The translations under genes were made by a program, and so were the position numbers. Shown here in pieces: positions 16,050 through 43,350 of a stretch of 47,580 bases of DNA; position 1 is the stretch's first letter, and every line of letters starts with the position of its first letter. Where the stretch lies: positions 1 through 47,580 of the forward strand of contig DATKSV010000003.1 of NCBI GenBank assembly GCA_035531535.1, in the 5' to 3' direction. Below the pieces are notes generated by a model. The model ran no database searches. It was not told where the DNA came from and worked only from the letters and a program-made list of their open reading frames with translations. Source of the stretch: Candidatus Nanopelagicaceae bacterium. GTDB lineage: Bacteria > Chloroflexota > Dormibacteria > Aeolococcales > Bog-877.

Positions 16050-17444
16050 GTGCCGCTGCCTAGGACTCTTGGTGAACTACGGGGCAGCGAGTACCGGATG
16101 CGCTCGGTCCGGGAGGAGCTGCGGGACAACCTGATGGCTGCCCTGCGCTCGGGGCAGCCCCTGTTCGCGGGCCTGATCGGCTACCAGGAGACGGTGGTGC
16201 CGCAGGTGGAGAACGCCATCCTGGCGGGCCAGGACATCATCTTCCTGGGCGAGCGCGGGCAGGCCAAGTCGCGCCTGATCCGGGCCTTGACGTCGCTGCT
16301 GGATGAGCAGCTCCCGATCGTCGCCGGCAGCGAGGTCCACGACGATCCCTATGCGCCCATCAGCCGCTTGGGCAGGGACCTGGTGGCCGACTTGGGCGAC
16401 GCCACCCCGATCGAGTGGGTCCCCCGCGACCGCCGCTTCGGGGAGAAGCTGGCCACCCCCGACACCTCCATCGCCGACCTCATCGGCGAGGTCGACCCCA
16501 TCCGGGTGGCCGAGGGTCGCTATCTGGCGGACGAGCTGACCATCCACTACGGCCTGCTCCCGCGGGTCAATCGCGGCATCTTCGCCATCAACGAGCTGCC
16601 CGACCTGGCCGAGAGGATCCAGGTGGGGCTGCTCAACATCATGGAGGAGCGCGACGTCCAGATCCGGGGCTTCCAGGTGCGGCTGCCGCTGGACGTGATG
16701 GTGGTGGCCACCGCCAACCCCGAGGACTACACCAACCGGGGCCGCATCATCACCCCCCTCAAGGACCGCTTCGGGGCCCAGATCCGGACCCACTATCCCC
16801 GCTCCAGCGTCCAGGAGGCAGAGATAATCGAGCAGGAAGGGGCCTCGTTCGAAGGCCTGGGCGTCAACCTGCACGTGCCCGCCTACATGCGCGAGCTGGT
16901 GGCCGAGATCTCCCAGCTGGCCCGCCACACCGCCCAGATAAACCAGCGCTCCGGGGTGTCGGTGCGGCTTTCCATAGCCAACTTCGAGACCATGTGCGCC
17001 AACTCGATTCGGCGCGCGATCCAGCTCGGGGAGCCGGAGGCGGTGCCCCGGATCAGCGACCTGGTGGCCCTCGCCGCTTCCACCTCGGGCAAGCTCGAGC
17101 TGGAAACCTGGGAGGAAGGGGAGGACCAGGTCGTGATCCAGAAACTGGTCCGCGGCGCCATCAGCACCGTCTTCCGTCACCACTTCTCACTGCAGGAGTT
17201 CGCCCCCCTGCTGGCCCGCTTCGAGCAGGGCCTGAGCCTGGAGACCGGGGAGAGGATCCCCGCCTCGCGCTACCTCCAGATGGCGAGCTCACTGCCCGAG
17301 ACCGCCCGCATCCTGGCCGACCTGGACGAGCCCAACCAGCCCGCCTCGGTGGCGGCCGCGTTGGAGCTGGTGCTGGAGGGCTTGCACCTGGCCAAGCGGC
17401 TCAACAAGACCTCGGTGGATGGCACCGCCGTCTACGCCAGCTGA
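16050..17444 (+). CDS. ChlI/MoxR-like AAA+ ATPase (Mg-chelatase-like, Rv0958-type).
   Basis: 464 aa with a Walker A-like GERGQAKSRLIRAL, a Walker B/sensor region (IFAINELPDL, VVATANPEDYTNRGRIITPLKDRFG) and a C-terminal helical domain. Confidence 0.8.
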   Translation: MPLPRTLGELRGSEYRMRSVREELRDNLMAALRSGQPLFAGLIGYQETVVPQVENAILAGQDIIFLGERGQAKSRLIRALTSLLDEQLPIVAGSEVHDDPYAPISRLGRDLVADLGDATPIEWVPRDRRFGEKLATPDTSIADLIGEVDPIRVAEGRYLADELTIHYGLLPRVNRGIFAINELPDLAERIQVGLLNIMEERDVQIRGFQVRLPLDVMVVATANPEDYTNRGRIITPLKDRFGAQIRTHYPRSSVQEAEIIEQEGASFEGLGVNLHVPAYMRELVAEISQLARHTAQINQRSGVSVRLSIANFETMCANSIRRAIQLGEPEAVPRISDLVALAASTSGKLELETWEEGEDQVVIQKLVRGAISTVFRHHFSLQEFAPLLARFEQGLSLETGERIPASRYLQMASSLPETARILADLDEPNQPASVAAALELVLEGLHLAKRLNKTSVDGTAVYAS

Positions 17445-19443
17445 GGGACGCGCGGTGCCGTCCGCACGCCAGCGTTACAGCCGTTGGGACGGCAGCCAGG
17501 AAGGGGACTTCCCCGCCGCCGACGAGGTCTTCTCCCGGTTGGCCGAGGATGTCTTCCATGGCTGGGACTTCGACTCCGCCCTGCGCCGGCTGCTGAGCCA
17601 GGGCTTCAAGGACCCGCAGGGAAGGCGGCTGCCGGGGTTGGAGGGGCTGCTCGAGCAGATCCGGCAGCGCCGCCAGCAGCAGCTCCGGCGCTACAACCTG
17701 GAAGGTCTCTTCCAGGACATAGCGGAGCGCCTCGACGGGATCGTCAAGCGCGAGCGAGAGACCCTGGGGGAGCGCTTGGAGCAAGCCCGGGGCGAGCCCG
17801 GTGGATCTCTGGCACAACGGACCGCCAGCAGCCGGCTGAGCCAGCTCGACCAGCTGCCCCCCGAGCCCGGGTCGGCGATCGGGGAGCTGCAGAACTACGA
17901 GTTCATGGATCCCAGGGCCGAGGCCGACTTCCGGGAGCTGTTGGCCGAGCTTCGGCGCAATCTGGCGGAGTCGCACTTCCAGCAGCTGGGCCAGAGCATG
18001 CAGCAGATGGGCCCCGAACAGGTGGCCCAGATGCGCGCCATGATGGCTGACCTCAACGCGATGCTGGCCCGCCACCTGCGCGGCGAACCCCCTGGCTACG
18101 AGCAGTTCATGGCCAAGTGGGGCGACCTCTTCCCCGATCGCCCCCAGACCCTGGAAGAGTTCCTGGAGCAGTTGCAACGACGCATGGCGGAACTGGATTC
18201 CCTGCTGAAGTCGATGTCGCCGGAGGCGCGTCAGCAGCTCCAGGAGATGCTCGAGGGCGCCCTCTCCGATGAGGCGCTTCAGGCCGAGCTGGAGCAGCTC
18301 GCCCAGCTGATCGGGCAACTGGCCCCGGGCGACGGCGTGGGCAGCCGCTTCGGATTCTCCGGGGCCGAGGAGCTCAGCTTCCCCGAGGCCATGGACATGA
18401 TGGCCCGACTGCAGCGGCTGGAGGCGCTGGAACGCGGCTTGAGCCGCGCCGTGGAGGGGCAGGAGATGCCCTTGGATCTGCTCGAGCAGCTGGACTCGGA
18501 GCTAGGCCCGGAGGCGGCCGCCAGCGTGCGCCGGATCCAGCAGCTGCTGGAGGAGATGGAGCGCAACGGGCAGCTCCGCCGGGGCGAGCAGGGCCTCGAG
18601 CTGACCCCTCAGGGAGTGCGCCGGATCGGCCAGAAGGCCCTCCGCGACATCTTCTCGAATCTGCGCGGCGACCGCTTCGGGGGCCATCGGGTGGACCGTC
18701 CCGGCGGTGGCGGCGACCGCGGGGAGGAGAGCAAGGTCTACGAGTTCGGCGACCCCTTCACCCTGGATGTGGAACGGACCCTGATGAACGCCGTCCGCAG
18801 AGGCGAGGCGCGGGCCCCGCTGCGCCTGCTGACGGAGGACTTCGAGGTGGTGCGGCCGGAACAGACCGTGACCGCCAGCACCGTGCTGATGCTGGACATG
18901 AGCCGGAGCATGCCGCTGCGGGGCTACTTCTACGCCGCCAAGAAGATGGCCCTGGGGCTGGACGCCCTGATCCGCAGCCAGTTCCCCCGGGACAGCCTCT
19001 ACGTGGTGGGCTTCTCCGACTACGCCCGCGAGATCCCTCCCGGCGCGCTGGCTGAACTCTCCTACAGCGAGTATGTGTACGGCACCAACATGCAACACGG
19101 CCTGATGCTGGCGCGGCGCCTGCTCAACCGCCACCGCGGGGGCAACCGCCAGATCATCATCGTGTCGGACGGTGAGCCCACCGCTCACATGGAGGGCGAC
19201 CGAGCGGTGTTCTTCTACCCGCCCCTGCCGGAGACCTTCCAGAAGACCCTGCTGGAGGTCAGGCGCTGCACCCAGGAGAAGATCGTCATCAACACCTTCA
19301 TGCTGGAGAGCAACAGCTTCTTGGTCCAGTTCGTGAACCAGATCACCCGCCTCAACCGCGGCCGGGCCTTCTTTGTCAGCCCCGACCGGCTGGGTGACTA
19401 CGTCCTGGTCGACTATGTCAGTTCGCGGGCCCGCCCCGCCTGA
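17419..19443 (+). CDS. VWA-domain protein with a long coiled-coil Q/E/R-rich N-terminal region (Rv0959-type).
   Basis: 674 aa. The C-terminal VWA / MIDAS-like region reads VLMLDMSRSM...VVGFSDYAREI...IIIVSDGEPTAH. The ORF overlaps the ATPase stop. An alternative GTG start at 17455 lies just after the ATPase stop and has a GAGGGA RBS. Confidence 0.8.
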   Translation: MAPPSTPAEGRAVPSARQRYSRWDGSQEGDFPAADEVFSRLAEDVFHGWDFDSALRRLLSQGFKDPQGRRLPGLEGLLEQIRQRRQQQLRRYNLEGLFQDIAERLDGIVKRERETLGERLEQARGEPGGSLAQRTASSRLSQLDQLPPEPGSAIGELQNYEFMDPRAEADFRELLAELRRNLAESHFQQLGQSMQQMGPEQVAQMRAMMADLNAMLARHLRGEPPGYEQFMAKWGDLFPDRPQTLEEFLEQLQRRMAELDSLLKSMSPEARQQLQEMLEGALSDEALQAELEQLAQLIGQLAPGDGVGSRFGFSGAEELSFPEAMDMMARLQRLEALERGLSRAVEGQEMPLDLLEQLDSELGPEAAASVRRIQQLLEEMERNGQLRRGEQGLELTPQGVRRIGQKALRDIFSNLRGDRFGGHRVDRPGGGGDRGEESKVYEFGDPFTLDVERTLMNAVRRGEARAPLRLLTEDFEVVRPEQTVTASTVLMLDMSRSMPLRGYFYAAKKMALGLDALIRSQFPRDSLYVVGFSDYAREIPPGALAELSYSEYVYGTNMQHGLMLARRLLNRHRGGNRQIIIVSDGEPTAHMEGDRAVFFYPPLPETFQKTLLEVRRCTQEKIVINTFMLESNSFLVQFVNQITRLNRGRAFFVSPDRLGDYVLVDYVSSRARPA

Positions 19444-19446
19444 GCG

Positions 19447-20325
19447 ATGGCGGCATCCCCACTCGACCCATCCCGGCAGCAGTTCTCAGAGCGCCTGCTG
19501 AACCAGCTGCGGTCCCGCTACCCCAGTTGGGACTTCCAGCCCGCCGACCAAGGATTCGCAATCTCCGCCAGGAAGGAGCAGGCTCGGCTCTCACTCTCCT
19601 TGACCACTCTCTACCAGGCGGCGGCGGCGCCGGGATCGCTGGCCCCGGCCGAGATCTTGCGCTTCGTCCAAGCCGCCGGCCCCAGGCTCAGCGCGGCCGA
19701 GGCTGCGCCGGTGCCGGAGGGTGGGGTGCCCGACCCGGAGGCCCTGGTGTGGTGTGTGCGCACCCAGAAGGTGATCAGCCGCTACCCCCGCGCGGGTGAG
19801 CTGGTGACCAGGGAGCTTCCGGGCGGCCTGCTGGCGTTCGTGTCGGAGGCCCTCCCCGGCGAAATCATGCGCGGGGTATCCCTGAAGCAGGCGGCGGAGG
19901 GGGGCCTCAACGAGGCCGAGCTGGTGCGTCGTTCCGACCACAACACGGCGGTGCGGCTGCAGCGTTGGGAGCAACAGTTGGCGACATCTCCCCGCCAGGG
20001 CCGCTGGATCTTCCGCCACGACGTGCTCTTCTCCAGCAGCCTGCTGCTGGTGCCGCCGTTCCTGCAAGCGGTGGCGGCGCGCGGCCAGGGCAGCGCCGCC
20101 CTTCTGGTGCCGGACCGGGGCACCCTGGTGGCGGCGATCGGGGAGGGGGCTCAGCCGCAGCAGCTACGCCATGTCGCCCGCCGCCTCTACGGCATGGCCG
20201 ACAGCCCCCTCATCCCCTACCTGCTGCTGACCGACGGGCACAGCCTGGCGCTCCATCCCTCCGAGGCCGAGCCACGGCGCCCCTGGTCAGGCTGGCGCCA
20301 GCTCCTGGGAATGAGAGGGTGGTGA
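19447..20325 (+). CDS. Hypothetical protein encoded between the VWA and NlpC/P60 genes.
   Basis: 292 aa. It starts 4 nt after the VWA stop and overlaps the next gene's start by 4-7 nt, so it is translationally coupled. No motif was recognised. Confidence 0.55.
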   Translation: MAASPLDPSRQQFSERLLNQLRSRYPSWDFQPADQGFAISARKEQARLSLSLTTLYQAAAAPGSLAPAEILRFVQAAGPRLSAAEAAPVPEGGVPDPEALVWCVRTQKVISRYPRAGELVTRELPGGLLAFVSEALPGEIMRGVSLKQAAEGGLNEAELVRRSDHNTAVRLQRWEQQLATSPRQGRWIFRHDVLFSSSLLLVPPFLQAVAARGQGSAALLVPDRGTLVAAIGEGAQPQQLRHVARRLYGMADSPLIPYLLLTDGHSLALHPSEAEPRRPWSGWRQLLGMRGW

Positions 20326-21200
20326 ACCCCGTCAGCGCCCCGCCAGCGCTGCTGACGGCACTGGATGGCCTGCGGGAGGAGGCGGCTCAGCGCTATGGGG
20401 CGCCCCCGCTGGTGGGCCTGACGGTGGTGCCCCGGGGCCTTCTGGGCTGGGTCGCCACCCCGGCTCAGGCGGACCAGGTGGCGGCGCTCGTGGCCGAGCT
20501 CTGGCCGGGAGCCAGGGCTCGCCTGCTGGTGCTGGGGGAGCGCCGGGCCCGGGTCGGCCTGCATGCGGTCACGCCGGCGCTCAACGTCTGGCGGACGCCT
20601 CCCGCGCCGGGGACCGAGCCGGAGCGAGTCACTCAGCTGCTTCCCGGGGACCCCCCAGCCGAGGTGATCGCGATCCGCCCCGGCCGTTTCCTGGTGCGAG
20701 CCCCGGGCCACGCCCTGGGGTGGGTGGCCCGGGGTGCCGGCTACCGCCTGGGCACGCCCTCTCCGGAGGGGGATCCGCCGGTCGACATCACCCAAGGTAC
20801 GGCCAGTTGGAGCCCCGAGCGGGTGCTGGCCGCAGCGCTGGCTTACGAGGGGCAACCGTACGTCTGGGGTGGCACCGGCGCCACCGGCATGGACTGCTCT
20901 GGCCTGCTCTGGCGGGCTTTCCTGACCGAGGGAATCCTGCTCCCCCGCAACAGCCGGGCGCAGCGCCGCCTGGGGCTCCGGGTGCGCCGCGAGGAGCTCC
21001 AGCCGGCCGACCTCCTGGGAGCGATCAGCCGGGGACAGCGGCGCTTCAGTCACGTGGCCCTGATGCTCGGCCCGGGCGAGGTGCTCCATGCCTGCAGTGA
21101 GCGCAGTCGAGTCCGCCGCGAGCCGCTGGCTGACTTCGAGCGCCGCTATCGGGTGCTGAGTGTGCGCCGCTTGCCGGGAGGCGTGAGCCCAGGACGGTAA
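20319..21200 (+). CDS. NlpC/P60 (C40) family peptidase with an N-terminal domain of unknown function.
   Basis: A GTG start overlaps the upstream stop and has a GAGAGG RBS. The C-terminal NlpC/P60 signature is GQPYVWGGTGATGMDCSGLLWRAF...HVALMLGPGEVLHA, consistent with a Cys-His catalytic pair. The upstream part of the track ORF 19965.. was trimmed. Confidence 0.75.
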   Translation: MVNPVSAPPALLTALDGLREEAAQRYGAPPLVGLTVVPRGLLGWVATPAQADQVAALVAELWPGARARLLVLGERRARVGLHAVTPALNVWRTPPAPGTEPERVTQLLPGDPPAEVIAIRPGRFLVRAPGHALGWVARGAGYRLGTPSPEGDPPVDITQGTASWSPERVLAAALAYEGQPYVWGGTGATGMDCSGLLWRAFLTEGILLPRNSRAQRRLGLRVRREELQPADLLGAISRGQRRFSHVALMLGPGEVLHACSERSRVRREPLADFERRYRVLSVRRLPGGVSPGR

Positions 21201-21210
21201 TCTTCACTGG

Positions 21211-22764
21211 GTGAACCCCCCGACCCCTGCGGCGAGCCCGACCCCCGGAGCGGCGCTCGGCCCGCTGCGCCTGCCTCCGGCGCTTCAGGGCCTGCGGGAG
21301 CAGCGCGTTGACGTGATCGGGGTGGCCAGCGTCGAAGGCGGCGAGATGGCCGGCTACCTGCTGGCAGCCGGCTTCACCAAGGTGGTCGGCCACGATCTCC
21401 AAGCCGACCTGGAACAGCTCCGTCGAGCCCACCATCTGGCCCACGCCGGGGTCGCTGAGCCAGAGCGCCAGGCCCACCTGGAGCGGCTCCTGAGCGGCCT
21501 TGCCGGGCTCCACCTGGGGCCGGAGTACCTCGCCGGGATCGAGGACTCGGCGCTGCTGATTCCAACTCAGGCCTGGTTTATGCAAGCGGCCAATCTGAAG
21601 CTGGCTCAACTTAGGGACGAGGGCCGGCCCTTCTACTCCCTGATCCAGGCCTATCTCGACCTGGCCAGCGGCCCGGTGGTGGGGATCACGGGCAGCCACG
21701 GCAAGTCCACCACCGCCGCCCTGGTGACAGCCGCCCTCTCCCACGCCCAGATGTTCCCCGAGGTCTGGCTGGCCGGCAATGACCGGCACAACCGCCAGGC
21801 CCTGGAGCAGGTGGCCCGAGACGAGCTGGGAGCGGGCTGCCTGGTGCTGGAGATCTCCAACCGCCAGCTGCTCCAGATGGACCGCGCGCCGGCGCTGGCC
21901 GCGATCACCAACATCACCCCCAATCACCTCGAGGAGCACTCCGGGATGGCCGGCTACATCGCCTGCAAGCGGCGCATCTTCGACCTGCCCGGATGCCGGG
22001 TCGCGGTCCGCAACGGAGACGACCAGATCAGCCTTGGCACCGGCGCCGTCAGGGAGGGCATCAGGGAGCTCCGCTTCGCCGCCGCCCTGGCCGGGCTCGG
22101 GAGCTGCGACGGAAGCTTCGAGGAGGGCGGCGCGGTCTGGCTGACCAGGCAGGGCGATCGAGCCCTGGCGCTGGAGATCGAGCGCCTGCGCCTGCGCGGC
22201 GCCCACAACCTGGCCAATGTGAGGGCGGCGGTGGCCATCTGCGCCGGCCTGGACGAGTTCCGGCCAGAGCTTCTGCCGAAATTGGCCGGGGGGCTGGAGA
22301 GCTTCGGCACCCTGGCTCACCGCATCCAGCTGGTCTGGCAGGAGGCGGGAGTTGACTACTACGACGACCTCTCCAGCACCACCCCGCAGTCGACCGTGGC
22401 CGCGCTTCGGACGATCGGACGCCCCTGCGTGCTGATCGCGGGCGGCCAGGACAAGGGCATCGCCTTCGACCAGCTGGCGGACGAGGTCGGGCGCTCGCTG
22501 GCGGCGGTGGTGCTGCTGCCGGGAGCGGGTTCGGACCGGCTCCTGGGGGCGATCAGGGAGATGGGTGCTGGGGAGTCGGTGCACCGGACCGGCGATCTGG
22601 AAAGCGCCGTGGGGATCGCCCGCCGACTGGCCCGACCTGGCGATGCCATCCTGCTCTCGCCCGCCTGCCCGGGCTTCTTCTCGGCGAACTATCAGGCAGG
22701 CGGATTCCGACAGTCGGTGCGCCGGCTCTCTACTTCTCCTCGTCGACGAACGGGGCCAGCGTGA
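21211..22764 (+). CDS. Mur ligase family protein (MurD-like amino-acid ligase paralogue) lying outside any dcw cluster.
   Basis: 517 aa with the Mur-ligase P-loop VGITGSHGKSTTAALV, ITNITPNHLEEH, a Rossmann-like N-terminal region and a MurD-like C-terminus (AILLSPACPGFFSANYQAGGF). Confidence 0.8.
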   Translation: MNPPTPAASPTPGAALGPLRLPPALQGLREQRVDVIGVASVEGGEMAGYLLAAGFTKVVGHDLQADLEQLRRAHHLAHAGVAEPERQAHLERLLSGLAGLHLGPEYLAGIEDSALLIPTQAWFMQAANLKLAQLRDEGRPFYSLIQAYLDLASGPVVGITGSHGKSTTAALVTAALSHAQMFPEVWLAGNDRHNRQALEQVARDELGAGCLVLEISNRQLLQMDRAPALAAITNITPNHLEEHSGMAGYIACKRRIFDLPGCRVAVRNGDDQISLGTGAVREGIRELRFAAALAGLGSCDGSFEEGGAVWLTRQGDRALALEIERLRLRGAHNLANVRAAVAICAGLDEFRPELLPKLAGGLESFGTLAHRIQLVWQEAGVDYYDDLSSTTPQSTVAALRTIGRPCVLIAGGQDKGIAFDQLADEVGRSLAAVVLLPGAGSDRLLGAIREMGAGESVHRTGDLESAVGIARRLARPGDAILLSPACPGFFSANYQAGGFRQSVRRLSTSPRRRTGPA

Positions 22765-22903
22765 AAGGCTCCAGGGCCACCACCTCGAAGGCGGCTCCAC
22801 AATTCGGGCAGTCGACCAGGTCGCCCACCTCCTCCGCCTCGGTGAGGTCCAATTCGGCCCCACAGTCGGGACATTCGCTTGCCCTATCGGACGCTGGTGC
22901 CAA
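22730..22903 (-). CDS. LysW/ArgW-like zinc-ribbon small acidic protein (candidate amino-group carrier protein) of 57 aa, not in the ORF track.
   Basis: The minus-strand translation is (L/M)APASDRASECPDCGAELDLTEAEEVGDLVDCPNCGAAFEVVALEPFTLAPFVDEEK*. It fits the LysW pattern of two CxxC zinc-ribbon motifs, GELV-C..CGAE.EVV.L.P, and an acidic tail. A TTG start follows a GGAGGAGAAGAGGA purine run. It overlaps the MurD-like 3' end by 35 nt in convergent orientation. Confidence 0.5.
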   Translation of the reverse strand: MAPASDRASECPDCGAELDLTEAEEVGDLVDCPNCGAAFEVVALEPFTLAPFVDEEK

Positions 22904-22917
22904 TCCTCTTCTCCTCC

Positions 22918-23979
22918 ATGCCCAGTCCTGACCCCGGGCCCGGCCCGGGGCAGTGGGATCACGCCGGCCTGTTTCAGGCGAGTGTACCCAGTGCGGCGCA
23001 GCTGAGCTTGGGCGAGGGCTGGACCCAGCTCCAGGCCGCCCGGGAGCTGGGCCTTGAGCTCGGGATCGCCGAGCTGTGGCTGAAGCGGGAAGACCTCTCC
23101 CCCACCGGCTCGCACAAGGCGCGCAGCCTCGGCCTCATGGTCTCGGACCTCAAGGCGCGCGGGATCTCGCAGGCGGTCATCTCCTCCTCCGGCAATGCGG
23201 CGGTGGCGGCGGCCGCGTTCTGCTCCCTGGCAGGGATCCGGTTGCTCAGCCTGGTCTCGCCCCGCACCGCGGCGGTCAAGCTCTCCGCCCTGCTCCGGCA
23301 GCCCCAGTTGGTGGTCGTAAGCGAGCACCCGGTCGCCCTCTTGCACCATGCCGTGACGGCGTGGGGGATGGCCGACCTGCGCACCTCGACCAACCGGCTG
23401 GGATCCGCCGCCTACCGCGGGATCGCCGCCGAGCTGGTGCCCGAGGGGCCCTGGCAGGCGGTCTTCGCGTTCGCCAACAGTGGCGCCACGGTACTCGGCC
23501 TGGCCGAAGGATTCAATCTCCTGCTCGCCGCTTCCGAACGGCCCCGGATGCACCTGGTCGAGGCCACCCCGGGGGGCGAGCTGACCAGGGCCTGGTACCC
23601 GCGGGGGCAGCGGACGGAGGCGTCGGGGGTCGGCGACCTAGGCACCCGGCGGAGCCGGCTGTCGCCGAGGGTGAGGCGGGTCGTCCGGGAGAGCGGGGGC
23701 CGAGGGTGGCGCGTCGGCCGGGCCAAGATGGAGGAAGCCCTGGCCCTGGGCGAGCGGCACGGAGTGGCCACGTCGTGGGAGGGGCTGGCCTCCCTGGCCG
23801 CGGCCCGGGAGGCCGCCCGCGAGGGTGGCGGCGGCAGGTGGGCGGTGGTTCTGAGCGGGGCTGCGGAACAGCTCGACCTGAGCCCGGTAGACCCCACCCC
23901 CACTGCGGCCGCGAGCACCCCTGGGGAGCTCGACCGGATCCTGACGGCGGCCGGCTTCGGGGCTGGGAGCGGCGCTTGA
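22918..23979 (+). CDS. PLP-dependent fold-type II enzyme (threonine synthase-like).
   Basis: It carries the PLP-lysine motif LWLKREDLSPTGSHKARSLG and a Gly-rich SSGNAAVAAAA stretch. The C-terminal region aligns with the threonine synthase / TrpB family pattern. The ATG at 22918 was chosen; the track used a TTG at 22879 that would overlap the LysW-like gene. Confidence 0.7.
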   Translation: MPSPDPGPGPGQWDHAGLFQASVPSAAQLSLGEGWTQLQAARELGLELGIAELWLKREDLSPTGSHKARSLGLMVSDLKARGISQAVISSSGNAAVAAAAFCSLAGIRLLSLVSPRTAAVKLSALLRQPQLVVVSEHPVALLHHAVTAWGMADLRTSTNRLGSAAYRGIAAELVPEGPWQAVFAFANSGATVLGLAEGFNLLLAASERPRMHLVEATPGGELTRAWYPRGQRTEASGVGDLGTRRSRLSPRVRRVVRESGGRGWRVGRAKMEEALALGERHGVATSWEGLASLAAAREAAREGGGGRWAVVLSGAAEQLDLSPVDPTPTAAASTPGELDRILTAAGFGAGSGA

Positions 23980-23987
23980 ACTCGGCG

Positions 23988-25208
23988 ATGGTATTCTTCG
24001 TCGGACCCGAGCCGGTGCCGGCTCTGGCCAGTGGGCTGCCGGTGATCTGCGCCGACGGCTGCGGGATCACCGATGCCGACCTGAGAGCCTTTCCGGAGGC
24101 GGGGCGGTCCAGTCAGGCCCTCTTGGACTGGGCCCCGGCGCAGCAGCTGCTGGCTGAGCGCGCCAGTGGCGTCGCCGTCTGGAAGAGCTCGGTCGCCACC
24201 GAGAGGCGGGCGGCTCAGCTCGGCCTGACCCTCGCCAACAGCCCCGCCAAGATCGCCCGGCGGCTCGAGAACAAGGCCTATTTCAGCCCGGCGGCGGCCC
24301 GGGCGGGTCTGCCGGTTCCCAGGATGGTGGGGGGTCCGGCCGGGCCCGAGTTGCTGGCGCCAGCGCTCGAGCTCGGGCCGGCCCTGGTCTTCCAGCTCGC
24401 GCACGGGTTCTCCGGGGCAGCCACCTATCCGGTCTCATCGGAGCCGGAGCTGCGCCGGCTGCTGCTGCGATTCGTGGGCCAGACCTGTCGCATCGCCGAG
24501 GTGGTGCCGGGGACCGCGGTGACCGTGACCGGAGTCGCCTTCGCCGACCGGATCGTGACCGGGCCGGCGTGCCTCCAGCTGACCGGGATCCCGGCGCTCA
24601 CCCCGCATCCCATGGGCTCCTGCGGCAACGACTTCCAGGCTCTGGTGCCGCACCGGGAGGTGGTGGAGGGCACCGCCGCCCAAGTCGGCGAGTGGCTTCG
24701 CCAGGAGGGACACCGCGGCGTCTTCGGGGTCGACCTGGTGGTAGCGGACGACGGTCGATGCTGGTGCATCGAGGCCAACCCGCGCCTGGTGGCGTCGGTG
24801 CCGCTCTGGACGCTCTCGGCCCGCGATCGCGGCGAGCGCTCGCTCCTGGACCAGCACCTGGGCTGCTTCGGCCTGGGCCAGCCGTCCGCCAGCCCCCTGC
24901 ACTGCCATTGGTCCCAGCTGATTCTCTACCAGGTGGGCGACGCCCCCGGGCCGGCGGCGGGGCCGGGCCAGCGCGCGGTGGAGACGGCCCGGGGCAAACC
25001 CGGCCCCGACGGCGGCTTCGCCGCCAGCGGCCCACTCAGCCTAGAAGGGCCCACGGCCGGCGAGGTCGCGCTGATCGTAAGGGCCGGCGCCCGACCCGGG
25101 CACGAGCTGGCTCGGCTGATCACAGATCGCCCCTTGACGTCTGCAGACGGCGAGTTGCTGCCCGAATGGATGGCCCTGGTGGGCCAGGTGCGGAGCCGGC
25201 TGGAGTAG
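23988..25208 (+). CDS. ATP-grasp domain enzyme.
   Basis: 406 aa from MVFFVGPEP, starting 8 nt after the PLP gene stop. ATP-grasp motifs are present (KAYFSPAAARAGLPVPRMV, GVFGVDLVVADDGRCWCIEANPRL). The upstream 23076..23987 of the track ORF is an out-of-frame overlap and was trimmed. Confidence 0.7.
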   Translation: MVFFVGPEPVPALASGLPVICADGCGITDADLRAFPEAGRSSQALLDWAPAQQLLAERASGVAVWKSSVATERRAAQLGLTLANSPAKIARRLENKAYFSPAAARAGLPVPRMVGGPAGPELLAPALELGPALVFQLAHGFSGAATYPVSSEPELRRLLLRFVGQTCRIAEVVPGTAVTVTGVAFADRIVTGPACLQLTGIPALTPHPMGSCGNDFQALVPHREVVEGTAAQVGEWLRQEGHRGVFGVDLVVADDGRCWCIEANPRLVASVPLWTLSARDRGERSLLDQHLGCFGLGQPSASPLHCHWSQLILYQVGDAPGPAAGPGQRAVETARGKPGPDGGFAASGPLSLEGPTAGEVALIVRAGARPGHELARLITDRPLTSADGELLPEWMALVGQVRSRLE

Positions 25209-29420: not shown

Positions 29421-31400
29421 TCAGGGGTTCCAGAGCGCGGTCGCGGCCAGCCCCGCCACCAACAGCAGCCCGAAGGTCATGTGGAGCTGGGCGGTCTGGA
29501 GGTCGATCATGGAGATCGCCCTCTGCTGACCCGTGGCCCCCAGCTCGGAGGCGCGCATGGCCCGCACGAAGAGCGGCAGGGAGAGGAAGGCCAGCAGGCT
29601 GAGCCGAGGCAGGGCACCCACCGCGACCGCCGCCGCCAGAGCCACATAGGCGCCCACCAGGAGAAAGACGTAGAGGGCGTGGGCCGCCCGCCGGCCGGCC
29701 CTGATGGAGACCGTGCTGATCCCGGCCCGAGCGTCCTCTCCGATGTCGCGCCACTCGTTGCCGTGGAGGATGGCGGTCACCAGAAGGCCGATGGGGATGC
29801 TGGCCACGCCAGCGGTCAAGGACCAGGTGCCGGTGACCGTGTAGTAGCCGCCCATGACCATGAGCGGCCCCATCAGCAGGAACACCAGGGGCAGCCCGGC
29901 CGCTCGGTACTTGTACTGCAGCGGAGGGGCGGTGTAGCCCCAGCCGCCAACCAGCCCGATGACACCCAGCAGGGCCAGCTCCCAGCCTCGGACCGTGATC
30001 AGCCAGACCCCGACCCCAGTCGCGAGCAGGAAGGCGAGCGCGGCCAGGATGAAGGCGGCTCTCTCGGTTACGCGTCCGGTCACCAGAGCCAGGCTGGCCC
30101 GGGGCGAGGTGATGGCGTCTATCCCCTTGCGAACATCGTAGATCTCGTTGATGACGTTGGTGCCGACCTGGAGCATCACCCCACCCAAGAAGGCGGCCGC
30201 GAAGAGCGGCCAGTTCATGGCGTGGTCGGCCAGGGCCAGGCCGCCCGCCGCCGCCACCGGAATGGCGGACGCGGTCAGGCTGAAGGGGCGCAGGATCTCC
30301 AGCCAGCCCCGGGCCCGCCGGCCCAGGCCGATCCCGGTCTCGCTGCTGAGAGCGGCCCTCCGGGAGGTGGCGGCGGTGCCGGCCACCAGGTCCCCCGAGC
30401 TGGCGTAGAGGAGGGCGGCGTCGACCACCTCCTCCACCTGGTCATCCTCCTGGAGCACCGGCTGGAGGATGGGCAGGGTCATGCCCGCATCCCGGAAGCG
30501 CTGGGCCCCGGCCGCTATCTCCTCTCGGGTGCCGCACAGCAGGAAGGCGTCGACCAGCTCATCGGGGATGATCCGGGCCGCCCCGTGGTAGTCCTCCGCC
30601 CGCCAGGCGGTGGCGATGGCCTGGCGCAGAGCCGGGTCCAGGCCCGCCCGGCGCATGGCGAAGTCCGACTGGACGGATAGCATGTAGATGACGAAGGGCT
30701 CGCGCTTGGCCCGGTCGAGTGCGGCCCGGCGGCTGGAGTCGGCCAGGGCCAGCAGGTACCCGCCCACCTCCACCACCCCCGGAGGACGTCCCGCCGCCAA
30801 CTCGGCCGCCCGGATCCGGCGCACGGCCAGCTGGAGCGCCGGAAGGGACTCGGCCGGTCGCGCCAGAAACCCGTCCGCACTCCGCCCCGCCAGCTCGTGA
30901 AAGCCCCGGCGGTAGCCGGCAACCCAGATCGGGACGTGGTGCAGGGGGGGGAACATGGGCTCGATCTCGGGTAGTCCCGGCGCGGTTGGCAGGCGCTCGC
31001 CGGACCAGAGCTTGCGCAGTTCGAAGATGGTGGTCTCCACCTTGGCGGTGGCCAGGTCGGGATCGTAGTCGTAGCCCATCTGGCGGAGGCGCAGGGGCAG
31101 GGCGGACCCCAGGGCCAGCACGACCCGCCCCGGCGCCAGGTCATCGAGCGCACTCACGGTCATGGCGATCAGGACCGGGTGGCGGGTGTTGGGGTTGATC
31201 GCTCCCAGCGCCACCCGGATGCCGGGGACGGCGGCCGCCACCGCTGTCGTGTAGGTCACCGCATCCCGCTCGAAGTAGGACTCGTGGAACCACACCGAGT
31301 CCAGGCCGGCGCTGCCGGCGCGTTCGGCGTGGCGCACAGCGTCGCGGACATCGCCGTGGGAGGCGAGTCCCAGGCCCACCGGCCGGACTAGCGCGGCCAT
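29421..31400 (-). CDS. Fusion protein with an N-terminal LLM (luciferase-like, probably F420-dependent) oxidoreductase domain and a C-terminal UbiA-family (MenA-like) prenyltransferase domain.
   Basis: A single 659-aa frame. Residues 1-330 or so carry LLM motifs (GLDSVWFHESYF, VVLALGSALPL). Residues 390-659 or so are polytopic membrane with the UbiA Asp-rich motif region (NVINEIYDVRKGID). Confidence 0.7.
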   Translation of the reverse strand: MAALVRPVGLGLASHGDVRDAVRHAERAGSAGLDSVWFHESYFERDAVTYTTAVAAAVPGIRVALGAINPNTRHPVLIAMTVSALDDLAPGRVVLALGSALPLRLRQMGYDYDPDLATAKVETTIFELRKLWSGERLPTAPGLPEIEPMFPPLHHVPIWVAGYRRGFHELAGRSADGFLARPAESLPALQLAVRRIRAAELAAGRPPGVVEVGGYLLALADSSRRAALDRAKREPFVIYMLSVQSDFAMRRAGLDPALRQAIATAWRAEDYHGAARIIPDELVDAFLLCGTREEIAAGAQRFRDAGMTLPILQPVLQEDDQVEEVVDAALLYASSGDLVAGTAATSRRAALSSETGIGLGRRARGWLEILRPFSLTASAIPVAAAGGLALADHAMNWPLFAAAFLGGVMLQVGTNVINEIYDVRKGIDAITSPRASLALVTGRVTERAAFILAALAFLLATGVGVWLITVRGWELALLGVIGLVGGWGYTAPPLQYKYRAAGLPLVFLLMGPLMVMGGYYTVTGTWSLTAGVASIPIGLLVTAILHGNEWRDIGEDARAGISTVSIRAGRRAAHALYVFLLVGAYVALAAAVAVGALPRLSLLAFLSLPLFVRAMRASELGATGQQRAISMIDLQTAQLHMTFGLLLVAGLAATALWNP

Positions 31401-32335: not shown

Positions 32336-34258
32336 ATGCCAACCAGCCGACCCGGCGCCGTTTCCAGGGCGTGGCGGCGAGTGTTCGAGCCCGACCTTAT
32401 CCTGCTCCATGCGCCCTCGGTCTGGGACTTCCGCCAGGAGGTGATCCTGCAGGGTCCGCTTGCGGACGTGATCCCCTCCACCGACGAGTTCGAGATGTAC
32501 CCGATCGGACTCACCAGCATTGGCGGTTACCTGGAGCTCAACCACTACAACGTCCGCATCCTCAACATCGCCTACCGGATGCTGCGCGAGCCCAGCTACG
32601 ATGTCGCCAGCCATCTCCGCAAACTGCACTCCCCAGTTTTCGGCATCGACCTGCACTGGCTCCCCCATGCCAACGGCGCGCTGGGGATCGCCGATCTGGT
32701 CAAGCAGGTGCATCCCGACTCCAAGGTGTTACTCGGCGGCCTCTCCGCCAGCTACTTCCACCGGGAGCTGATCGCGAACCCGGCGGTCGATTTCGTGCTG
32801 CGAGGAGACTCCACCGAGGAGCCCTGCCGTCAGCTGCTGCAGGCGCTGCGCGAGGGATCGCCTCTGGAGCGGGTCCAGAACCTGACCTGGAAACGGCCCG
32901 ACGGAGAGGTGGTCGTGAACCCGCTCACATTCATCCCGGCCAACCTGGACTGGATCGACGTCCCCGCCTATGACTTCATGCTCCACGCGGTCTTCAAATA
33001 CCGCAGCCTCGCCGACTTCGTGCCCTATGCGGAGTGGCTGCAGTACCCCAGCACCATGGTGCTGAACGCCCGCGGCTGCCCCTACAACTGCTCCATCTGC
33101 GGCGGTTCCAGGTCGGGCTACCAGATTGTGGCCGGCCGGGCCCGGGCCGCCTATCGATCGCCCGAGAAGCTGGTTGCCGACATGCGCCGGATAGCCACCT
33201 TCTCGCGGGCCCCGATCTTCATGGTCCACGACCCCAGGGTGGGAGGGGTGGAGCGCGCCCAGCGGATCTTCGAACTGGTTGGCCGAGCCGAGATCCCCAA
33301 TGAGCTGACCATCGAGCTGTTCTACCCCGCCGGTCCCGACTTCTTCGCCATGGTTCGCAAGGCCACCAGGTGGTGGAGTCTGGAGATAACCATCGAGTCG
33401 CCCGACTACGAGATCCGCAAGGTCAACGGCAAGTTCCCGGTGTCGAACGCCGCCGTGGAGGAGACGATAGCGGCCGCCCTCGATCAGGGCTGCGAGAAGC
33501 TGGACCTCTTCTTCATGGTGGGGCTGCCCCGCCAGACTCCCGCCGACGCCCTGGCCACGGTCGACTACTGCCGGCACCTGGTCGAGCGCTTCCACGCCGA
33601 CAAGAGGCTGCAGTTCTACGTCGCCCCTCTGGGGCCATTCCTGGATCCGGGCAGCCGCGGCTTCGAGCAACCCGAGCTCGGCTATCACCGCCGCTTCACC
33701 ACCCTGGAGGAGCACCGTCAAGCCCTGCTCGGGCCCACCTGGCGGGAGATGCTCTCCTACGAGACTGACTGGATGACGAGGGAGCAGATCGTGGACACCA
33801 CCTACCGGGTCGCGGCCGGGATCAACGAGCTCAAGTTCGCATCCGGACTGATCGACGCCACCACCCACAACACCGTGGTCACGCATCTGGGGGCGGCCCG
33901 CGAGGTCCTGGCCGAGGTTGACAGAATCCTGCTACTGCCAAAGGCGGAGCAGGATGCCCGGCTGCGCACCCTGAAGGCCAAGACGGAGACCGCCAACACC
34001 GCCACCATGAACGGCAGCCAGGAGCTTAAGTGGCATTCGGCCACCGGGTTCCGGGTGAGCCGGCTCCTGGTCCGGCATCTGCTGGCGGCATTCCCACGGG
34101 AGGGCCAGCACGGCTGGGCGCGGCTGCTGGGGCATTACGACACGGCCGTCGCCCAGGTCAGATCCCTGCCGGAGCTGAGCGAACGGGTCAATGTAGGGCC
34201 TGGGGCCCCAGGCCCGCGGCCCCCAGAGGCCGCGCTCGCCGCTAGCTCTCGGGACTGA
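32336..34258 (+). CDS. B12-binding-domain radical SAM protein (class B rSAM).
   Basis: The N-terminal cobalamin-binding-like domain is followed by the rSAM cluster motif ARGCPYNCSICGG. The protein is about 640 aa. An alternative GTG start lies at 32381. Confidence 0.85.
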   Translation: MPTSRPGAVSRAWRRVFEPDLILLHAPSVWDFRQEVILQGPLADVIPSTDEFEMYPIGLTSIGGYLELNHYNVRILNIAYRMLREPSYDVASHLRKLHSPVFGIDLHWLPHANGALGIADLVKQVHPDSKVLLGGLSASYFHRELIANPAVDFVLRGDSTEEPCRQLLQALREGSPLERVQNLTWKRPDGEVVVNPLTFIPANLDWIDVPAYDFMLHAVFKYRSLADFVPYAEWLQYPSTMVLNARGCPYNCSICGGSRSGYQIVAGRARAAYRSPEKLVADMRRIATFSRAPIFMVHDPRVGGVERAQRIFELVGRAEIPNELTIELFYPAGPDFFAMVRKATRWWSLEITIESPDYEIRKVNGKFPVSNAAVEETIAAALDQGCEKLDLFFMVGLPRQTPADALATVDYCRHLVERFHADKRLQFYVAPLGPFLDPGSRGFEQPELGYHRRFTTLEEHRQALLGPTWREMLSYETDWMTREQIVDTTYRVAAGINELKFASGLIDATTHNTVVTHLGAAREVLAEVDRILLLPKAEQDARLRTLKAKTETANTATMNGSQELKWHSATGFRVSRLLVRHLLAAFPREGQHGWARLLGHYDTAVAQVRSLPELSERVNVGPGAPGPRPPEAALAASSRD

Positions 34259-36119: not shown

Positions 36120-36709
36120 CCGGCAGCCACCTGAAGGTGCCGCCCCACCAGCTTATTGCCGATGCCGACGAGGTTCAGCGCATCCTCTTCCGACTCTCCC
36201 GGGAGCTTCAGGAGCGGCACCGAGACCCAGCTCTCGTGACCCTTTGCGGGATCGTCACCCGGGGCGTTTTCCTGGCCGACCGCCTGCGCCGCATGATCGA
36301 GGAGCAGGGAGGTGGGAGCTGGGATGCAGTGAGCCTCGACGTCGGCCCCTACCGGGACGACGAGATCCGGCCCCAGGGGGCCAGCCGATCCGGAGGCATG
36401 CCCGACTTCCCGCTGCCCACGGCTACCGCGGAGAGGGTTCGCGACCGGGTGGTGGTGCTGGTTGATGACGTCTTCTATCACGGCCGGACTGTGCGGGCGG
36501 CCCTGGCGGCCCTGGCGGAGCTGGCCCGGCCCAGGGCGGTCGAGCTCCTGGTCCTGGTCGATCGGGGGCACCGCGAGCTGCCTCTTCGGGCCACCTACGT
36601 GGGCAAGAACATCCCCACCGCCCAGAACGAGCGGGTGGCGGTGACGGTGGTCGGCTGTGACGCCGACGACGCCATCCGGCTGGAGCGGTCCGAGGAGCCT
36701 AAGGCGTGA
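36116..36709 (+). CDS. pyrR: Bifunctional pyr operon regulator / uracil phosphoribosyltransferase PyrR.
   Basis: A TTG start overlaps the pyrB stop (TTGA). It carries the PRTase motif VVVLVDDVFYHGRTVRAAL and the PyrR C-terminus (ATYVGKNIPT). Confidence 0.85.
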   Translation: MTGSHLKVPPHQLIADADEVQRILFRLSRELQERHRDPALVTLCGIVTRGVFLADRLRRMIEEQGGGSWDAVSLDVGPYRDDEIRPQGASRSGGMPDFPLPTATAERVRDRVVVLVDDVFYHGRTVRAALAALAELARPRAVELLVLVDRGHRELPLRATYVGKNIPTAQNERVAVTVVGCDADDAIRLERSEEPKA

Positions 36710-38025
36710 AAGAGCTGCTACTTCGCAAGGTCCGGATCGTCGACCCCGTCGGGGGCAAGGACCGCGACAGCTACGACTTGCTGATCCGAGACGGGATCGT
36801 GGCCGAAATGGCGAGCAAGCTGGTCCTGCCCGCCGGCGGGGTGGTGCTGGAACGGCCCGGCAGCGTGGTCAGCCCCGCCTTCCTCGACCTCCACTGCCAC
36901 CTCCGTGAGCCCGGGCAGCCATGGAAGGAGCGCATCGCCAACGCCACCGCGGCGGCCGCGGCGGGCGGCTTCGGGGCGATCTGCGCCATGGCGAATCTGC
37001 AGCCGCCGCTGGACACTGAGCCGCGGCTGCGCCAGGCGCGCAGCAAGAACCGCTCCTGGGGCCGGATTCCCATCTTGCAGTTCGCAGCCTGCAGCACCGG
37101 CCTGCGCGGCCAGGAGCTGGTCGACATGGAGGGCCTGGTCGCCGCCGGCGCCGCTGGCTTCTCCGACGACGGCCGCCATGGCTGCGACCAGCGGATTCTG
37201 GCGGAGGGGCTGGCCCGCGCCCACTCCCTGGGCCGCCTCGTTGCCATTCACCCCGAGGACGAGCGCATCGTCGCCATGGCCAACGAATGGTCGGGGAGCG
37301 ACCCCACCGCCTGGAGCCTGCGTCCGGCGGAGGCGGAGGAGGCGGCGGTGACATCCGCGATCGCGGCGCTGCGGGATGCCGAGGTGGGCCGGCTCCACCT
37401 GCAGCACCTGACCACCGCCACCTCCGTGACCCTGGTTCGCCAGGCGAAGTCGGAAGGGCTGGCGCTGACGGCGGAGGTTACCCCCCATCACCTCATGCTC
37501 AGCGGCTTCCTGCGGGACCCCGACGTCCCCGGGCTCAATCTGACCTGCAACCCGCCGCTGCGCACGGAGGCGGATCGAGCCGCCCTCTGGGAGGGTCTGT
37601 TGGACGGCACCATCGACGCCATCGCCAGCGACCACGCTCCCCATGAGGTGCCCACCGATCCCCTGCAGAGGCGCCCGCCGGGGTTCAGCGGGGTCCAGGC
37701 CGTGCTCTCCGTGGTGCTCGGCCACCAGGATTCCGGCTCGCATCTGACCCGGATCGTGGCAGCTCTCAGCGCCGGCCCCCTCAGGGTCCTGGGGGCGGCC
37801 GCGGAAGGGCTCCCCAGCACCGGGATCCAGGTCGGCGAGCCGGCCCACCTCACCTGGTTCGATCCGGCCGGCAGATGGACCCCTGACCGGAGCTCATGGC
37901 TGTCGCTGGGAACCAACACCCCCTTCTGGCACCAGCAGCTGCGGGGCACCGTGCTGGCCACCTTCTCGCGCGGCCGGGCGGTGTACATAAGCCGCGGGCT
38001 GGGCGCGGAGATCGAACTTGACTGA
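36706..38025 (+). CDS. pyrC: Dihydroorotase.
   Basis: A GTG start overlaps the pyrR stop. Metal-ligand motifs are present (DLHCHLREPG, ASDHAPH). Confidence 0.9.
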   Translation: MKELLLRKVRIVDPVGGKDRDSYDLLIRDGIVAEMASKLVLPAGGVVLERPGSVVSPAFLDLHCHLREPGQPWKERIANATAAAAAGGFGAICAMANLQPPLDTEPRLRQARSKNRSWGRIPILQFAACSTGLRGQELVDMEGLVAAGAAGFSDDGRHGCDQRILAEGLARAHSLGRLVAIHPEDERIVAMANEWSGSDPTAWSLRPAEAEEAAVTSAIAALRDAEVGRLHLQHLTTATSVTLVRQAKSEGLALTAEVTPHHLMLSGFLRDPDVPGLNLTCNPPLRTEADRAALWEGLLDGTIDAIASDHAPHEVPTDPLQRRPPGFSGVQAVLSVVLGHQDSGSHLTRIVAALSAGPLRVLGAAAEGLPSTGIQVGEPAHLTWFDPAGRWTPDRSSWLSLGTNTPFWHQQLRGTVLATFSRGRAVYISRGLGAEIELD

Positions 38026-42460: not shown

Positions 42461-43350
42461 GCTCGGCAGAGCCGCTCAGCGCCGCCGCCCTGGTCGGCCG
42501 GAGCGACCTCTCCGGGGCTGTCGACGAGGCGGCTGTCTGCGCCCAGTCGGTCGACCTCGGGGCCAACCTGTTCGAGATCACCTTCGTGGCGCCCCAACTG
42601 GCACGGCTGGCCTGGCCCGGTCAGTTCGCCCAGATCCAGATCGATCCTGGCCCAGTTCCACTGCTGCGCCGGCCGTTCTCATTCAGCCGGGCCGACCCCG
42701 ACCAGGGCACGATCTCCTTCTACTTCGGGGTTGTCGGCGTGGGCACCAGCCTGATGGCTAGCTTCCGGCCCGGCCACCAGGTGCGGATCCTCGGACCCCT
42801 GGGCAGAGGATTCACCCTCCCCAAGACCAGGGGTCGGTCACTTCTGATCTCGGGGGGGTTGGGCGCTGCGCCGCTGCCGCTCCTGGCCGAGCGCCTGACC
42901 GCCCGTCAGGAGGAGGTGATCTGGCTCAATGGAGCCAGGACGGCGCGCGAGGTCTATCCCGACCATCTGATCCCTGCCGGCACCTCCCGCCGGGTCCAAT
43001 TCACCCAGGACGGCAGTGCCGGCAGGGCCGGGCTGGTCACAGATGGACTGGAGGACTGGCTGGACATCAGCCAGCGGATCTACGCCTGCGGCCCCAATGC
43101 GATGCTGAACGCGGTGCACTCGCTCTGGACGCAAAGAGCAGAGCTCCCGGGCCCCGAGCTCGAGGTGTCCATCGAGGCCCCGATGGGCTGCGGTTTCGGC
43201 ACCTGCCTGGGTTGCGCCATCCCCCTGCTCGACCCCGGCCACCCAGGCGGTGAGGGCCCGCTTGGCCTCTGCTGCCGGCAGGGGCCGGTCCTGGCGGCGA
43301 GTGCTCTCGACTGGGAGCGGCTGCTGCGCCAGCCGTCCCATCTGGAATAG
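42457..43350 (+). CDS. pyrK: Dihydroorotate dehydrogenase electron-transfer subunit (class 1B, FAD/[2Fe-2S]).
   Basis: Motifs RRPFS and CGPNAM, plus the C-terminal cluster CGFGTCLGCA. Confidence 0.85.
   Translation: MSSAEPLSAAALVGRSDLSGAVDEAAVCAQSVDLGANLFEITFVAPQLARLAWPGQFAQIQIDPGPVPLLRRPFSFSRADPDQGTISFYFGVVGVGTSLMASFRPGHQVRILGPLGRGFTLPKTRGRSLLISGGLGAAPLPLLAERLTARQEEVIWLNGARTAREVYPDHLIPAGTSRRVQFTQDGSAGRAGLVTDGLEDWLDISQRIYACGPNAMLNAVHSLWTQRAELPGPELEVSIEAPMGCGFGTCLGCAIPLLDPGHPGGEGPLGLCCRQGPVLAASALDWERLLRQPSHLE

Follow-up and report, generated by a model that had tools for sequence, protein, structure and literature searches.

The block of genes at 16050-21200 in the window, by which we mean the whole 47,580-nt stretch of contig DATKSV010000003.1 analysed here, opens with a ChlI-like AAA+ ATPase and a VWA protein, continues with a 292-residue protein and closes with an NlpC/P60 peptidase. 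We read it, with moderate confidence, as a compact operon of one Dormibacterota subclade in which two independent cassettes adjoin and the peptidase has no dedicated regulator in the ATPase-VWA pair. The first cassette comprises the ATPase, the VWA protein and the 292-residue protein, a remote relative of the DUF1444 proteins; the second, which reaches beyond the block, comprises the peptidase, a MurD-like ligase, a LysW-like zinc-ribbon protein, a pyridoxal phosphate (PLP) enzyme and an ATP-grasp enzyme. Flanking genes change between clades and each cassette remains intact, the second lying directly behind the first only in the window's subclade. This departs from the first-pass annotation, which had taken the four genes as a single module, an ATP-regulated peptidoglycan hydrolase or effector. 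Coordinates are positions in the window, and locus (L) and protein (P) numbers are labels from our survey.

A scan with the VWA alignment, taking one genome per species, gave 80 loci (L004-L083), which were surveyed by tblastn and profile hidden Markov models. Wherever a locus extends upstream, the VWA gene is immediately preceded on its own strand by the ATPase gene, and by gene neighbourhood the ChlI-type ATPase and the VWA protein, with its metal ion-dependent adhesion site (MIDAS), form an obligate pair. The first-pass annotation had proposed checking which genes follow such pairs elsewhere: the DUF1444-like gene does so in 55 of the 80 loci, with protein identities of 46-63% within the window's subclade that drop to ~30-35% for many of the other Dormibacterota, and the NlpC/P60 gene in 18, all of one subclade. 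The Mur ligase, PALP (PLP enzyme), ATP-grasp and DnaJ genes are likewise restricted to these 18 loci plus L001 and L002, while in the other 37 loci with a DUF1444-like gene the next genes encode an ADP-ribosylglycohydrolase-like protein, a B12-binding protein, ribosomal protein L25 and MscS. A second scan, of metagenomes with a distant-clade alignment (A5) of the DUF1444-like protein, also gave 80 loci. The VWA gene was found upstream on the same strand in 58 of them, 20 having too little upstream DNA (58 of 60 assessable), with a gap of <150 nt in 32, one inserted gene in 15 and inserts of 2-4.3 kb in 11; the two loci without a VWA gene each had 5.4-5.6 kb of upstream DNA. Neither an NlpC/P60 nor a Mur ligase gene was found near the DUF1444-like gene in any of the 80 metagenome loci. 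Since the DUF1444-like gene accompanies the pair this regularly in both surveys, gene order establishes ATPase, VWA and DUF1444-like protein as a conserved unit across much of Dormibacterota. An even more divergent relative, P0204, is encoded 1.7 kb past an ATPase-VWA pair whose ATPase gene is broken up by frameshifts and whose VWA product is only 31-37% identical. In L001 (4100-6400) and L169 (1800-5400) the ATPase and VWA genes are likewise split into several short gene calls that tblastn aligns across frames, probably assembly frameshift errors and not pseudogenes.

The ATPase (464 aa, 16050-17444, plus strand) matches Pfam AAA_5 at 5.6e-8 and falls short of both Mg_chelatase (18.6 bits, cutoff 20.3) and bpMoxR (19.6 bits, cutoff 27). 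Its weak NCBIfam matches are to chelatase subunits only, BchI-ChlI (TIGR02030) scoring 38.5 bits, far under its cutoff of 466.95, and its closest solved relative is ChlI (8osf, E 7e-11). The Walker A motif reads GERGQAKS in the window and GERGQAK[ST] family-wide (73 loci), with Ala at the usual second conserved Gly. At the Walker B position the window has FAINE, with Asn replacing Asp, and the same Asn stands in a Walker B-like hhhhNE motif (RGIFAINE) in all those loci where it is readable, 68 of the 73.

The VWA protein (plus strand) opens with a long helical region at its N-terminus, followed by a VWA domain (Pfam VWA_2 at residues 488-586, numbering of the second open reading frame (ORF) product) and a C-terminal 'Rv0959_3rd' domain. 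Its MIDAS motif is intact (D481-x-S-x-S, T544, D572) and invariant in the alignment of homologues (A2). Our local Pfam scan covered VWA_2 only among the three domains; precomputed Pfam annotation of the homologues, which are 662 aa long, gives PF27532 (Mb0984_helical), PF13519 (VWA_2) and PF27098 (Rv0959_3rd), a set present in the 100%-identical P0062 and in all but one of 120 listed homologues, the exception being the shortened P0139 (481 aa), which is without the N-terminal helical domain. Because its homologues bear these three domains, we count the protein as genuinely belonging to the Rv0959/Mb0984 family, and the two genes as a pair of the Rv0958/Rv0959 type. The first-pass annotation had recognised this pair, and the homologue domains and the upstream ATPase bear it out, but its description as actinobacterial does not hold here, the pair being of Dormibacterota. 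Searches by sequence found no solved homologue of the VWA protein, and neither Pfam nor NCBIfam gave an AAA match in its N-terminal 450 residues.

The annotated 674-aa VWA product corresponds to the longest ORF (17419-19443), whose ATG at 17419 overlaps the ATPase gene by 26 nt and is not conserved among relatives. In 16 related loci the VWA gene starts 1-10 nt past the ATPase stop. GTG 17455, preceded by GAGGGA, lies 10 nt past that stop and gives a product of 662 aa (17455-19443). Because the homologues have this length and the start is conserved at this distance, GTG 17455 is the likely start, with ATG 17419 as a formal alternative.

The third gene (19447-20325, plus strand, 292 aa) had been described as coding for a protein with no recognisable motif. 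Indeed, neither Pfam nor NCBIfam gave a match, PF07285 (DUF1444) included, but profile comparison uncovers a relative. When a profile of 26 family members was run against 1.84 billion representative proteins, 199 matches were obtained at E<=1e-3, the weaker full-length ones being Pfam DUF1444 proteins (e.g. P0237, 54.6 bits, cutoff 23.8). Alignment of the family with Pfam-called DUF1444 proteins by hhalign gave 99.8% (E 3.4e-30, 251 columns). As single members miss the Pfam threshold, the relationship is placed at superfamily level: by these profiles the protein is a divergent, remote member of the DUF1444/UPF0354 (YtpQ/CgoN) superfamily. The secondary structure of its AlphaFold2 (AF2) model comprises three alpha/beta units with boundaries that, by secondary structure, resemble those of YtpQ. 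The only characterised DUF1444 protein, YtpQ/CgoN of Priestia megaterium, is a coproporphyrinogen III oxidase that is independent of oxygen and dependent on flavin adenine dinucleotide (FAD), an enzyme of Bacillaceae whose AF2 model is divided into three domains, with no analogue in the PDB (PMC10965808); that study defines none of its cofactor- or substrate-binding residues.

Several features of more distant DUF1444-like proteins may be recorded here. Those of the distant clade (L019, L022, L024, L025, L036, L046, L048, P0184-P0186) end in a conserved P-W-L-x-[E/D], while the window's clade has a longer tail (G-W-R-x-L...); the terminal acidic residue of the former is a plausible candidate MIDAS ligand. 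The gene for the remote P0209 (L088) comes directly after the gene of a Fur regulator and an operon for an ABC-3 (Mn/Zn/Fe-type) transporter, a context that recalls the reported link of B. subtilis ytpQ to iron homeostasis (PMC3176815). P0208 adjoins LigD, and the context of P0192, on a 940-nt contig, is uninformative.

The fourth gene (20322-21200, plus strand, 292 aa) encodes a C40 peptidase of the YkfC/NpPCP type, with NLPC_P60 at residues 177-271 (66.8 bits, cutoff 23); this call, like those of a ChlI-like ATPase and a VWA protein made in the first-pass annotation, is upheld by Pfam and NCBIfam. An N-terminal alpha/beta domain (~1-80) and an SH3b-like domain (~85-145) precede the catalytic domain, whose C192, H244 and H256 are invariant in 32 aligned sequences. 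The SH3b domain packs against the active site, as in the YkfC-type SH3b + NlpC/P60 fold. Residues 8-25 are modelled with confidence as a helix of the additional N-terminal domain (predicted local distance difference test score, pLDDT, ~96) and there is no signal peptide; because the N-terminus is such a helix, the peptidase is predicted from the model to be cytoplasmic and not a wall-facing hydrolase. A hydrophobic leader is absent in 30 of the 32 aligned sequences, the outliers being P0417 and P0419; the latter proved to be a secreted NlpC/P60 protein with no relation to this one, encoded among unrelated genes. A secreted hydrolase of the RipA/RipC/CwlO type was also ruled out, the window protein having no signal peptide or anchor and scoring 74 bits against 425 for the NCBIfam RipC model.

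Full-length homologues of the peptidase at >=49% identity (at least 49%) occur in the window's subclade only, and the next tier has 33-40% identity over ~68% of the length. We examined four of these second-tier proteins (P0409, P0422, P0412 and P0410, in L084, L085, L086 and L171). All four loci have the NlpC/P60 gene, a 4-nt overlap, a Mur ligase gene (513-514 aa), and then LysW-like and PALP genes, and in none of the four is an ATPase, VWA or DUF1444-like gene a neighbour; the upstream genes vary (HAD hydrolase, TetR regulator, hypothetical genes). It is on account of these distant orthologues that we assign the peptidase to a second cassette, and their gene order establishes that other genomes of Dormibacterota or Chloroflexota conserve that cassette independently of the first. 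One of them, L086, is a contig of GCA_038212015.1, an accession series that matches the Chloroflexia metagenome-assembled genomes (MAGs) of the VWA scan, and is probably itself from a Chloroflexia MAG.

The second member of this cassette, a MurD-like Mur-family ligase (21211-22764, plus strand, 517 aa; Pfam Mur_ligase_M and Mur_ligase_C), follows the NlpC/P60 gene at 9-11 nt in the window's clade. It scores 175 bits against the NCBIfam murD model (TIGR01087, cutoff 212), aligned from model position 80, and matches PDB MurD at E 7e-38 over residues 127/144-495 only, its first ~130 residues being unmatched. We judged it unlikely to be the housekeeping MurD, as it always lies in this cassette and has no recognisable MurD N-domain. 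The LysW-like protein (22730-22903, minus strand, 57 aa) has a CPDCG...CPNCG zinc ribbon and scores just below the lysW cutoff (TIGR01206, 50.4 bits against 53.2), with model tail positions 47-54 unmatched; its own C-terminal EEK is found in 17 of 17 readable loci. Its gene runs along the minus strand in L084 as well as in the window's clade; L085, L086 and L171 carry it on the plus strand. The threonine-synthase-like PLP enzyme (22879-23979, plus strand, start uncertain and possibly ATG 22918; Pfam PALP 6e-36) is well under the cutoffs of the NCBIfam threonine synthase models and is conserved after the LysW-like gene. The ATP-grasp enzyme (23976-25208, plus strand, starting at a TTG at 23976 that overlaps the PALP stop or at ATG 23988; Pfam ATP-grasp_3 at 4e-5) is part of the cassette in the window's clade and L084. 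No publication in the literature searched connects LysW to a Mur ligase, and the combination of a YkfC-like peptidase, a MurD-like ligase and an EEK-tailed LysW-like protein is apparently undescribed.

All four ORFs of the block lie on the plus strand (16050-17444, 17419-19443, 19447-20325 and 19965/20322-21200) and carry the coding signature (high G+C at third and low at second codon positions) in DNA of ~70% G+C. The first-pass annotation had read overlapping stop and start codons at two junctions. The second is real, the TGA stop of the 292-aa gene (20323-20325) overlapping the GTG at 20322 (GTGA), but at the first gcg separates the VWA stop TGA (19441-19443) from ATG 19447, a 3-nt spacer where relatives have 2-5 nt. 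The packing that had been confined to four co-directional genes is likewise genuine and conserved in its spacing, but runs on into a fifth, the Mur ligase gene starting at 21211, 10 nt past the NlpC/P60 stop. Gene order and spacing are maintained in ~20 independent assemblies at 46-88% protein identity, for which reason the arrangement goes beyond chance. These data support the block being one compact operon in this clade, and the two cassettes are probably co-transcribed in the window's subclade. A promoter and terminator scan gave no signal above shuffled controls and is uninformative.

The proposal of a single four-gene module, with the NlpC/P60 protein as a peptidoglycan hydrolase or effector under the activation or control of the ATPase-VWA pair, draws on this packing, on the NTGA overlap between the DUF1444-like and NlpC/P60 genes, kept in 18 of 20 related loci of the window's subclade, and on the existence of AAA+/VWA pairs such as CbbQO and NorQD, which are activators of other enzymes. 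Against it, the peptidase gene follows the pair in just the one subclade, its distant orthologues lie in the Mur ligase/LysW-like cassette without any gene of the first, and it encodes a protein without a signal peptide and with a YkfC-type fold, typical for enzymes on free stem peptides. Comparative genomics therefore largely refutes this module, and we regard it as quite improbable.

The first-pass annotation also mentioned MoxR-VWA conflict systems, and another reading of the block is as such a conflict or anti-phage system with a peptidase effector. The bpMoxR match of the ATPase, weak and under its cutoff, would fit, as would the recurrence of ATPase, VWA protein and effector in such systems, an architecture that Kaur et al. 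reportedly described in 2020. PADLOC nevertheless returned no matches for the ATPase, DUF1444-like, NlpC/P60 and Mur ligase proteins and only two marginal ones for the VWA protein (E 0.003-0.007, ~13 bits; coiled-coil noise). The genes moreover occupy a stable chromosomal position among housekeeping genes (dnaJ, pyr genes), are vertically conserved across the phylum, and come without a beta-propeller or other signature partner, so that a conflict system is very improbable.

For the first cassette, the main rival is plain inherited synteny within one phylum. The DUF1444-like gene would then be a mere neighbour by descent, and the pair would act on an unlinked client, presumably as in mycobacteria, in which no such third gene is known to come after it. 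Several observations weigh against the reading of two functional cassettes, some of them in favour of this rival. The DUF1444-like gene is absent from 25 of the 80 loci, including those of a Dormibacterota sister clade ("Chloroflexi CF_"), Chloroflexia and Rubrobacter, and no profile match revealed a hidden copy among the downstream genes of these loci; given such gaps, synteny without physical partnership may suffice. In ~45% of linked loci unrelated genes are inserted between the VWA and DUF1444-like genes (e.g. TetR, DinB/MDMPI, or DUF1684 + ABC + FtsX), the B12-binding protein, L25 and MscS genes are also syntenic among distant loci, more distant DUF1444-like proteins are unlinked to ATPase-VWA pairs, and the evidence tying the gene to the pair is confined to one phylum. 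The link to DUF1444 is itself remote (no family member passes the PF07285 threshold, two of 22 reaching E 0.3), and CgoN-like chemistry should not be assumed from it. As the Walker B Asn is family-wide, ATP hydrolysis by the ATPase family is no more than putative. Finally, the 4-nt overlap conserved in the subclade suggests co-expression, and some functional link between the cassettes may have been acquired there.

Inherited synteny alone fits less well with other features of the same loci. The three-gene set outlasts changes of both flanks between clades, strand and order are kept in all but two of the assessable metagenome loci, the set recurs where the VWA protein has diverged as far as it has next to P0204, and where the VWA and DUF1444-like genes are adjacent their spacers are of 2-5 nt. 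On balance we consider synteny alone to be unlikely, if a serious contender, and retain the two-cassette operon as our explanation. In the 'Chloroflexi CF_' loci (L028-L066) the gene 3-36 nt past the VWA gene codes, as read from sequence, usually for a ~316-aa look-alike of an LLM-type (luciferase-like) oxidoreductase; in L028 it resembles a methyltransferase.

If the two-cassette reading is correct, the ATPase and VWA protein would work like other AAA+/VWA couples (BchI/BchD, CobS/CobT, CbbQ/CbbO, NorQ/NorD), in which an ATPase ring powers a VWA adaptor whose MIDAS grips an acidic residue of the client. The DUF1444-like protein may be the client or a substrate-holding partner of the pair, most plausibly an enzyme that handles a flavin or tetrapyrrole and would need ATP-driven remodelling or loading with a cofactor or metal. 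This cofactor-loading role is the most appealing among specific guesses, if no more than a guess, and is prompted by the resemblance of the ATPase and VWA protein to chelatase motors and of the DUF1444-like protein to a porphyrinogen oxidase. In the second cassette, the peptidase would cut a gamma-glutamyl-type amide in a soluble peptide or carrier-bound adduct, not in the cell wall, and such an adduct may be built or recycled on the EEK-tailed carrier by the Mur-type and ATP-grasp ligases. The products of both cassettes are all predicted to be intracellular.

A more specific version would make of the ATPase, VWA and DUF1444-like proteins a hitherto unrecognised tetrapyrrole-handling machine of three parts, a chelatase-like or cofactor-loading system in which the DUF1444-like protein would take the substrate-holding role of ChlH/CobN, and separately of the second cassette a new route by which amino acids or peptides are built or trimmed on a carrier protein; this version is improbable. 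No large subunit of the ChlH/CobN type was seen among the annotated ORFs of the window, the sole ORF of >1000 aa being a carbamoyl-phosphate synthase.

As for the source of the DNA, homologues of the 292-aa, VWA and NlpC/P60 proteins come almost all from Candidatus Dormibacteria/Dormibacterota MAGs, and by this measure the genome in the window is that of a member of the Dormibacterota (AD3) and not of an actinobacterium. Database proteins that are 100% identical (P0001, P0331; locus tag VMV23_00145) carry the label 'Candidatus Nanopelagicaceae bacterium' (MAG), which clashes with the Dormibacterota relatives and probably arose through an error of binning or labelling. An exact-match query of an assembly index with the window's ATPase came back empty.

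Elsewhere in the window, the carbamoyl-phosphate synthase just mentioned is a 1480-aa ORF (38018-42460) in which the CarA (small) and CarB (large) subunits are fused, and it lies in a pyrimidine operon with pyrC (36706-38025) and a pyrK-like gene (42457-43350). A 659-aa ORF on the minus strand (29421-31400) matches an LLM-class F420-dependent oxidoreductase in its N-terminal half and a MenA-type 1,4-dihydroxy-2-naphthoate prenyltransferase in its C-terminal half, and represents either a fused gene or a merger of two genes in ORF calling. The product of 32336-34258 is a radical SAM protein with B12 binding, assigned to TIGR04190 (Ta0216) at 600 bits, above the family's cutoff.

Pairs of the Rv0958/Rv0959 type occur in mycobacteria, Dormibacterota, Chloroflexota and Rubrobacter, where they are annotated "magnesium chelatase". 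The recurrent DUF1444-like gene offers this orphan family a testable candidate client and a possible link to tetrapyrroles, and a tetrapyrrole machine, if true, would be the first functional handle on a family that is conserved in M. tuberculosis. Parting the NlpC/P60 protein from the pair averts a misleading annotation as an "ATP-regulated wall hydrolase", and the second cassette may represent a new use of carrier-protein chemistry.

Comparison with known systems places the peptidase closest to YkfC (B. cereus, 3h41), NpPCP (2evr) and DPP VI, gamma-D-glutamyl-L-diamino acid endopeptidases with which it shares the SH3b + NlpC/P60 fold. It differs from them in its additional ~80-aa N-terminal alpha/beta domain, at 24-25% identity, and in place of the ykfABCD recycling genes its genomic partners encode a MurD-like ligase and a LysW-like protein. 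The latter protein resembles the LysW/ArgW carriers (as in LysW with the ATP-grasp enzyme LysX) in its CxxC...CxxC zinc ribbon, acidic C-terminal region and adjoining ATP-grasp gene. The tail of LysW is Glu-terminated, whereas that of the window's carrier is an invariant EEK, and its partners are a Mur ligase, an NlpC/P60 peptidase and a PLP enzyme, not LysZYJK.

In the first cassette, the DUF1444-like protein is homologous to YtpQ/CgoN over ~250 residues, and both are three-domain alpha/beta proteins of ~270-290 aa without a PDB analogue; the window protein is below the Pfam threshold, however, and CgoN is not reported with an AAA+/VWA pair. As in the class I chelatase motors (BchI/BchD or ChlI/ChlD, and CobS/CobT), where ChlI is the nearest solved relative of the ATPase, the partner has a C-terminal MIDAS-VWA domain. 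The window ATPase nonetheless scores 38 bits against an equivalog cutoff of 467 and has Asn for Asp in Walker B, and the N-terminus of the VWA protein is helical and not, as in BchD/ChlD, a degenerate AAA+ domain. A parallel for the pair as a whole is the mycobacterial Rv0958/Rv0959 (Mb0984), with a matching two-gene layout and matching sizes, the M. marinum Rv0958 orthologue being 1392 nt long (PMC11237697) and the window's gene 1395 nt. Rv0958 is labelled a 'possible magnesium chelatase' and Rv0959 is a conserved hypothetical VWA protein; the literature searched yielded no mechanistic study of either (also under COG4867/MSMEG_5512), and they are only listed there, for example as a transposon hit, an expression change or a candidate in a DNA-association test. 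The genes downstream of the pair in M. tuberculosis are vapBC9, whereas the Dormibacterota pair in the window is accompanied by a third, DUF1444-like gene. What is new here is an AAA+/VWA pair of a known kind with a newly recognised, recurrent third partner.

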